From Eledone cirrhosa (taxonomy: Eukaryota): a stretch of DNA of 64,000 nucleotides. Positions 36,011 to 36,231 of the stretch are shown here, piece after piece. Every line of letters starts with the position of its first letter. Position 1 is the stretch's first letter. The DNA lies in contig OZ024759.1 in assembly GCA_964016885.1 (NCBI GenBank), forward strand, positions 24,428,001 through 24,492,000, given 5' to 3'. Under the pieces are notes generated by a model. It was not told the origin of the DNA. It ran no database searches and saw only the letters and a program-made list of their open reading frames with translations. The position numbers and the translations under genes are program-made.

Positions 36011-36231
36011 ATATTTCGTTTCTGAATTTGTTTAGCAAGATTCTTTATCTGAAACCGTGTGTTGAAACCGATATTGTTATACTTTGGGAGGGTCATGTTG
36101 CCAATAAGAAACACACGCACCAGTTGCTTTCACTTCAATTTATTATAATAAATTTATAATAAATTCATAAATTTATAAATTTCTGGTTGGTTGGTTGGTT
36201 CCACAACCAGATAGTTGTTTATATATTGTCA
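36011..36231 (-). mobile_element. Family I element starting at the predicted HHR cleavage site
   Basis: Homology to 34841-35068 stops right after tgtca (minus UGAC..., the first bases of the 3' product). Confidence 0.75.

Follow-up and report, generated by a model that had tools for sequence, protein, structure and literature searches.

Inverted copies of Penelope-like elements that end at a predicted hammerhead cut in the genome of Eledone cirrhosa

Hammerhead-bearing repeats in the window

The stretch of DNA analysed here (hereafter, the window) comprises 64,000 nt of contig OZ024759.1 (positions 24428001-24492000) of the 3.0-Gb, (TA)n-rich genome of Eledone cirrhosa. The masked window is full of short interspersed repeats, which are often arranged as head-to-head pairs, and hammerhead cores are present in several of them. 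The copies of three of these families, designated I, E and B, are listed in Table 1, where +1 denotes the first base 3′ of the predicted hammerhead cut. The family B read-through pair at 24181-24372 served as the reference for the genome-wide tests of that family.

Table 1. Copies of families I, E and B in the window
Feature	Position	Strand	Details
Family I pLTR/tail fragment	36011-36231	-	starts at +1, boundary ambiguous from -2 to +1; single arm with unique flanks and without inverted partner
Intact family I minimal type I hammerhead	38323-38365	+	core 38327; GAAA 38352; 2-bp helix III; CUU 38359-38361; +1 = 38362
Family I read-through arm (counter-example)	34846-35070	-	inverted partner arm 35068-35117
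Family E head-to-head pair	2079-2262	.	both arms end at +1; centre 2123-2124 with 2-nt AT overlap; (TA)n flanks
Intact family E minimal hammerhead	42649-42713	+	AUA 42703-42705; +1 = 42706
Family B variant	20310-20410	+	inverted arms both end at +3; 7-nt insert 20327-20333; sense arm from 20334
Family B head-to-head read-through pair	24181-24372	+	+1 = 24279; arm ends at +20 and +94
Family B copy with 5′ half of hammerhead core	41257-41430	+	C3/A8 variant 41262-41268; long helix II; GUC site; +1 = 41349

Besides these copies, the window harbors an additional hammerhead, whose helix II is long and whose site is GUC (36800-36915, plus strand; a single copy among the sequences compared), another abundant family of inverted arms, whose junctions cluster near its hammerhead-like core (2335-2736, 4935-5102, 20434-20615 and 56558-56725), and more hammerhead-bearing repeats, some of them in short tandem or inverted arrays (33837-34265, 55633-56001 and 32012-32173). 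A long low-complexity frame on the minus strand (57537-60197), which is possibly a first coding exon, includes a short stretch resembling an eh1 repressor motif and, at its C terminus, a motif reminiscent of ladybird/Lbx homeobox proteins.

Identity of the elements

The window copies of families I, E and B are fragments of Penelope-like elements (PLEs) with hammerheads. In family E, a 583-codon ORF (locus L361) with reverse transcriptase and C-terminal GIY-YIG motifs, read by eye, is located upstream of the pLTR. This ORF has 782 homologues, the best named one being from Argonauta hians, and gave no match in a Pfam search. Family B pairs enclose ORF pieces of the same kind (L404 and L405, motifs by eye), and the GIY-YIG nuclease end is found upstream of family I arms in L156, L223 and L230 (by eye). 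An ORF coding for a reverse transcriptase with a C-terminal GIY-YIG domain upstream of the pLTR, as is typical for EN+ PLEs, was thus observed for family E, in pieces for family B and by its nuclease end for family I, and so was the other mark of this group, an inverted truncated copy with an optional tail. The arms end in (TA)n at two fixed 3′ points, which are +20 and +94 in family B, about +51 and +138 in family E, and +131 and +188 in family I.

Families E and B share with the Hydra-clade PLEs, as described in the available part of Craig et al. (2021, PMC8557442), the single ORF with reverse transcriptase and C-terminal GIY-YIG domains, the CxCX5C linker, the CxxC and CxH motifs around the nuclease end, (TA)n targets, a hammerhead in the pLTR, and the inverted truncated copy with a tail. 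On these motifs, E and B may be placed with the Hydra clade, the N-terminal parts of their ORFs not having been recovered intact. The linker of family I has a different cysteine pattern, of the Neptune/Nematis type. Metazoan non-LTR retrozymes, which according to the accessible accounts (PMC7229834; bioRxiv 10.64898/2026.07.22.740005) carry type I hammerheads related to those of PLE pLTRs, consist of tandem arrays of ORF-less monomers with a hammerhead in each, whereas the window copies are single or inverted-pair sub-unit arms of coding PLEs.

Two side observations concern other elements. A 727-codon open frame of another Hydra-like Penelope element is present in a randomly fetched stretch (L020:2-2182), and near-identical copies of a two-ORF LINE with a 1,204-codon endonuclease-reverse transcriptase frame lie between the arms of a family E pair (L364-L365; G000:C1:22038000-22056000).

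Predicted hammerheads

Manual annotation revealed a type I hammerhead with core, NUH site, helices I and II and a minimal helix III in families I and E, and both fit the minimal PLE hammerheads of Cervera and de la Pena (2014, PMC4209133), as far as the consulted portion of that work describes them. In family B, a type I hammerhead with the 3-8 pair in its core, GAAA, an NUH site (GUC) and helices I-III was identified. Most B copies in the window lack the 5′ core, but genome-wide 1,714 matches join helix I and the 7-nt core to the long helix II. Visual inspection of the first 100 of these matches assigned about two thirds to the U3-A8 covariant and about one third to a C3/A8 mismatch. The covariation (known from Schistosoma PLEs) and the palindromic loop 3 are shared with hammerheads in the same portion of PMC4209133, from which the B hammerhead differs in its 6-bp helix III and long helix II; helix III has 2-3 bp in I and E. 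As a separate observation, the C3/A8 mismatch occurs in about one third of full-length B copies (window 41262-41268, for example), yet this lineage is abundant and appears to leave cut-site junctions as well.

The predicted fold of the B hammerhead contains helices I and III, while helix II competes with an alternative hairpin; the stability of the region was no better than that of shuffled sequences (z = -0.9). A scan against Rfam yielded no hammerhead family among the 150 listed of 639 matches, which were dominated by matches of microsatellites to miRNA families. Most inverted junctions of B are located in helix II, 25-45 nt upstream of the cut and next to the alternative hairpin that spans GAAA (window 24233-24260 and other copies). 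Self-cleavage 3′ of H17 is predicted for all three families, the junction spike described below being an indirect sign of it.

Copies in the window that start near the cut

According to the original prediction, three copies in the window begin at or close to the cleavage site. The family I copy at 36011-36231 does start with UGAC, as do the bases after CUU in the intact hammerhead (38362-38365), but its boundary is not exactly at +1. The two bases that precede the start, UA, equal positions -2 and -1 of a natural CUA variant, which was found in two of seven read-through copies together with the same downstream haplotype, intact family I copies occurring in both CUU and CUA forms; the boundary is therefore to be placed anywhere from -2 to +1. 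In contigs from three runs of one sample, the flank past 36239 is uncovered, and loose ends at 36231 continue only into the read-through form. The copy fits a cleavage model, but ordinary truncation is the more likely source, random truncation with microhomology being the likeliest account. Judged by the excess share of family I ends at the cut basin, derivation of this copy from cleaved RNA is rather unlikely.

The family E arm at 2123 had been said to start right after AUA. Both arms of this perfect hairpin indeed end at +1 (cut 42705/42706), though its centre is a self-complementary AT, so microhomology alone could have produced it. Its exact 28-nt sequence occurs at five loci genome-wide, as against 28,585 family E arms, and an origin from cleaved RNA is slightly favored. 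For the B variant, a start near 20335, about 2 nt after GUC, had been proposed. The approximate place was right and the exact one was not, since both arms stop at +3 on either side of the insert; here the odds are somewhat against cleaved RNA as the source. The expectation that other copies extend past the site was borne out: by eye, about 90 of the first 100 family E matches and more than 90 of the first 100 family B matches read through, as do most copies in the window. Taken singly, none of the three examples exceeds chance; as a class, B does, E does so moderately, and I weakly.

Family B junctions genome-wide

A pile-up of 5′ ends at the NUH site, which the original prediction had proposed as the check, was found genome-wide decisively in family B, moderately in E and weakly in I, the family of the flagged copy. 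Family B, the weakest of the window examples, is the strongest in this test.

Family B junctions in which the inverted arm lies no more than 30 nt from the sense arm gave 721 matches, of which 100 were listed; matches 1-70 were taken, and 68 were classified by script. Inserted bases were present at 30 of the 68 junctions, and in 18 of these 30 both arms end exactly at +1, a coincidence with a chance of 1/435 under a uniform distribution. Of the 60 ends of the insert class, 43 are at +1, 13 at +2 to +8, and four upstream (one at -1). The inserts at the 18 junctions are 1-6 nt long, are of 11 kinds and consist of A/T to 79%. The other 38 junctions have no insert; seven are blunt, and the rest are microhomology joins elsewhere. 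Blunt junctions are indistinguishable from CG microhomology at -1.

The cut-site loci have unique flanks, and both arms of a pair carry the same subfamily haplotype; as the flanks differ, these loci are independent insertions. When the 100 listed of the 721 matches (about 97 loci after merging of duplicates) were examined by eye, 22 insert and 13 blunt loci were counted, which scales to about 260 cut-site loci versus 22,347 long arms, or about 1% of copies. Read-through of the cut site was seen in about 99% of B arms and in the majority of E and I arms. Under a looser filter (truncated sense arms of any kind; by eye, with three intact matches dropped), only seven of 97 ends fell at +1, next to microhomology peaks of 8-9 at +4, +6 and +13. 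This much flatter distribution indicates that it is the tight two-arm junctions that carry most of the B signal.

Among 104 B matches examined, none represents an upstream cleavage product inserted as a 3′ end. Decay of CpG was considered as a source of the inserts and rejected: the CpG at this position is decayed in only three of 48 read-through arms, and the single-base inserts are C/G in two cases versus A/T in 14. At one cut-site locus, contigs of 1.1-1.2 kb, one of them blunt, cross the junction in three runs; having fewer than 31 letters on one side, they are not counted as bridging. Another locus (L204/L385; G000:C1:77500300) shows the long arm of a B cut-site palindrome fused to an inverted family I arm.

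Families E and I

The search for family E junctions returned 228 strand hits, and 100 listed rows represented 52 loci; a single complex one was left out, and 16 were rechecked. Among 102 ends scored by eye in these rows, 15 are at +1, 19 at +6, 13 at +11, 10 at +10 and eight at -4, all with AT/TA overlaps, so that the peak at +1 does not exceed the AT-microhomology peaks at +6 and +11. At the 13 junctions without overlap, six of 26 ends are at +1, the expected share being 0.04 (p = 4 × 10−4, by-eye input).

For family I, copies ending at -12 to +4 were retrieved (203 matches, 191 listed, 188 unique contexts), and 10 mutants that retain the core and one duplicate were dropped. When no microhomology preference was assumed, 51 of 177 ends fell in -2 to +1 versus 31 expected, with the best spike at +1 (LRT 9.8). 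A calibrated test, in which same-strand deletions, duplications and doubtful partners were set aside to leave 144 ends, placed 42 in this basin versus 30 expected (LRT 3.1 at +1 and 5.8 at -1); simulations with strong microhomology weights (beta 6 and 10) were unstable and left out. Direct inverted joins are not in excess (18 versus 16.2 expected), while joins with inserts, (TA)n or unknown flanks are (24 versus 14, p = 0.004). An A-run basin unrelated to the cut likewise holds more ends than expected (33 versus 25). In family I, two or three nearly symmetric junctions at the cut site can be recognized (L324, L326 and one more). A chimera at L193 (G000:C2:369630221), in which a family E hammerhead and helix I strand is joined directly to +1 of family I, is what would be expected of a template jump from the end of a cut family I RNA.

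The ranking of the trace, B above E and E above I, follows the predicted competence of the hammerhead monomers (helix III of 6 bp in B versus 2-3 bp), in three families that were compared under different filters, the one for B, in contrast to that for I, selecting tight inverted junctions.

Core genotype and family B subfamilies

Two B subfamilies differ in core genotype. One, with U3-A8 in seven of seven full-length copies, gave 265 strand hits per 13,811 read-through arms, and the other, mixed one, with nine of 14 copies of the C3/A8 type, 113 hits per 13,999, a 2.4-fold difference in rate (p ~ 10−15). The 53 listed loci of the U3-A8 subfamily comprise 23 insert, 21 blunt, six microhomology and three ambiguous junctions; the 57 of the mixed subfamily comprise 25 insert, 14 blunt, 11 microhomology, six ambiguous and one one-armed. 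The ratio of cut-site to microhomology junctions did not differ significantly between the two subfamilies (p = 0.29).

A restriction of the trace to intact U3-A8 parents received no support from a marker test. A tail marker linked to U3-A8 parents (88 of 91) is present in only one of 11 cut-site loci of the mixed subfamily that have a tail (p = 0.04 to 0.002 if only U3-A8 parents were cut); therefore, C3/A8 lineages probably leave the cut-site trace as well. Cutting in trans within a double hammerhead, which is established for dimeric hammerheads in the part of PMC4209133 at hand, could explain this.

Discussion

The reading that best accounts for the family B junctions is that the mirror-image pairs stop at the first base past the cut because the RNA had cut itself before being copied. 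We give this a probability of about 0.7, the cleavage in vivo being deduced from junctions in DNA. The original prediction, that such copies are cDNA of self-cleaved RNA, is in this way upheld for B, to a moderate degree for E, and weakly for I, including the copy that had been flagged.

The strongest competing account, improbable as it appears, is that the RNA is uncut and that its folded hammerhead junction halts the reverse transcriptase, the halted ends being joined afterwards. Helix III starts at -2, and the blunt class (seven of 68 junctions; 21 of 53 in the U3-A8 subfamily) is what two cDNAs ending at -1 and annealed via CG would give. Moreover, the arms of most B copies meet in the helix II region, a sign that structure attracts junctions, and the trace of the C3/A8 lineages, which are expected to be poor cutters, keeps this explanation alive. 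On the other hand, a stop at helix III should copy C17, whereas only one of the 60 insert-class ends is at -1 as compared with 43 at +1. The edge is one-sided, with four of the other ends upstream and 17 downstream (p = 0.003; 13 downstream in the scripted tally of 60 ends), and the 2.4-fold lower rate of the mixed subfamily is observed despite an identical helix III.

Random 5′ truncation with microhomology, or later repair of palindromes broken at the centre, could also produce peaks at run edges. It accounts for most of the E peaks and, after calibration for microhomology, for all direct inverted I junctions, but overlap-free junctions with both arms on the same base (18 of 30) cannot be obtained in this way; it is refuted for B and has very little probability as a general explanation. 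Least probable, by a small step, is that +1 is a transcription start or another processing site, since, although any defined RNA 5′ end yields the same one-sided spike and an extra G, as a copied cap would give, adjoins six of 36 arms (by eye), a base-exact coincidence with the conserved GUC of a covarying hammerhead would be required, the adjoining base is mostly A or T, and two unrelated families show weaker excesses at, or close to, the corresponding site.

Self-cleavage before copying can be put into a sequence of steps. The identity of the elements, the two fixed 3′ ends, the one-sided spike at +1 in B, the short A/T-rich inserts and the independence of the loci are shown by the sequences; self-cleavage, the priming of the short 3′ product from both sides of the break, the run-off with its added bases and the head-to-head joining are inferred. 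The endonuclease would break the (TA)n target, and cDNA synthesis, primed by both DNA ends, would begin at the fixed pair of start points in the tail (+94 and +20 in B). Either cDNA would then extend to the 5′ end of the 3′ cleavage product, of about 94 nt, and gain 0-6 mostly A/T bases, before template jumping or end joining links it to its counterpart. Families E and I, with a helix III of 2-3 bp, likely cut less often, which may leave the fainter trace.

Both-strand priming has an in vitro precedent. According to the consulted sections of Frangieh et al. (2024, PMC11167929), the PLE Poseidon_Ac is inserted with cutting and extension on both strands, and two reverse transcription start sites define the tail, as in the present arms. 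In the same sections, the Poseidon_Ac hammerhead is protein-assisted, cleavage is not needed in vitro and uncut RNA is the dominant substrate. That only about 1% of B insertions end at the cut fits "not required", but it indicates that cleavage happens. A close analogy is provided by the HDV-like ribozyme of R2, whose genomic 5′ junctions follow the ribozyme cut and contain non-templated bases, as far as the available text of PMC3774820 goes. In R2, the ribozyme and the element class are different and the cut forms the 5′ end of the full element, whereas the present cut lies downstream of the ORF and gives a short, non-coding mirror-image copy.

Ribozyme-defined junctions are thus already known from R2, and junctions probably of this kind are here seen in a class in which ribozyme activity in vivo was an open matter. 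In the parts of the sources that were accessible, the function of the hammerhead in EN+ PLEs is called unclear (PMC8557442), in vivo evidence is stated to be absent (PMC4209133), and the sole biochemical study found no RNA-seq ends at the hammerhead site (PMC11167929). In the same parts, PMC8557442 gives no distribution of ends such as the counts reported here. No report of genomic PLE copies ending at the hammerhead cut was found in the incomplete body of literature searched.

That independent insertions accumulate at the predicted cut to the exact base is an indirect sign of cleavage in the cells that transmit insertions, and it constrains how the arms of inverted Penelope insertions are made and joined. 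The same count of junctions can be made wherever an assembled genome exists, so that the question lends itself to direct testing. Tentatively, and with the odds somewhat against the full set of these propositions, Penelope hammerheads may cut in the germ line, and the genome may hold a countable record of it. The share of cut ends would then be a fossil read-out of in vivo activity per family, with B far above E and E above I, and the U3-A8 hammerhead would work in vivo. Such a record would further suggest that partner RNAs, acting in trans via the palindromic loop 3, cut the core-defective C3/A8 transcripts. Finally, the cut product would be a dead-end template, so that the ribozyme would limit the spread of these elements rather than drive it.
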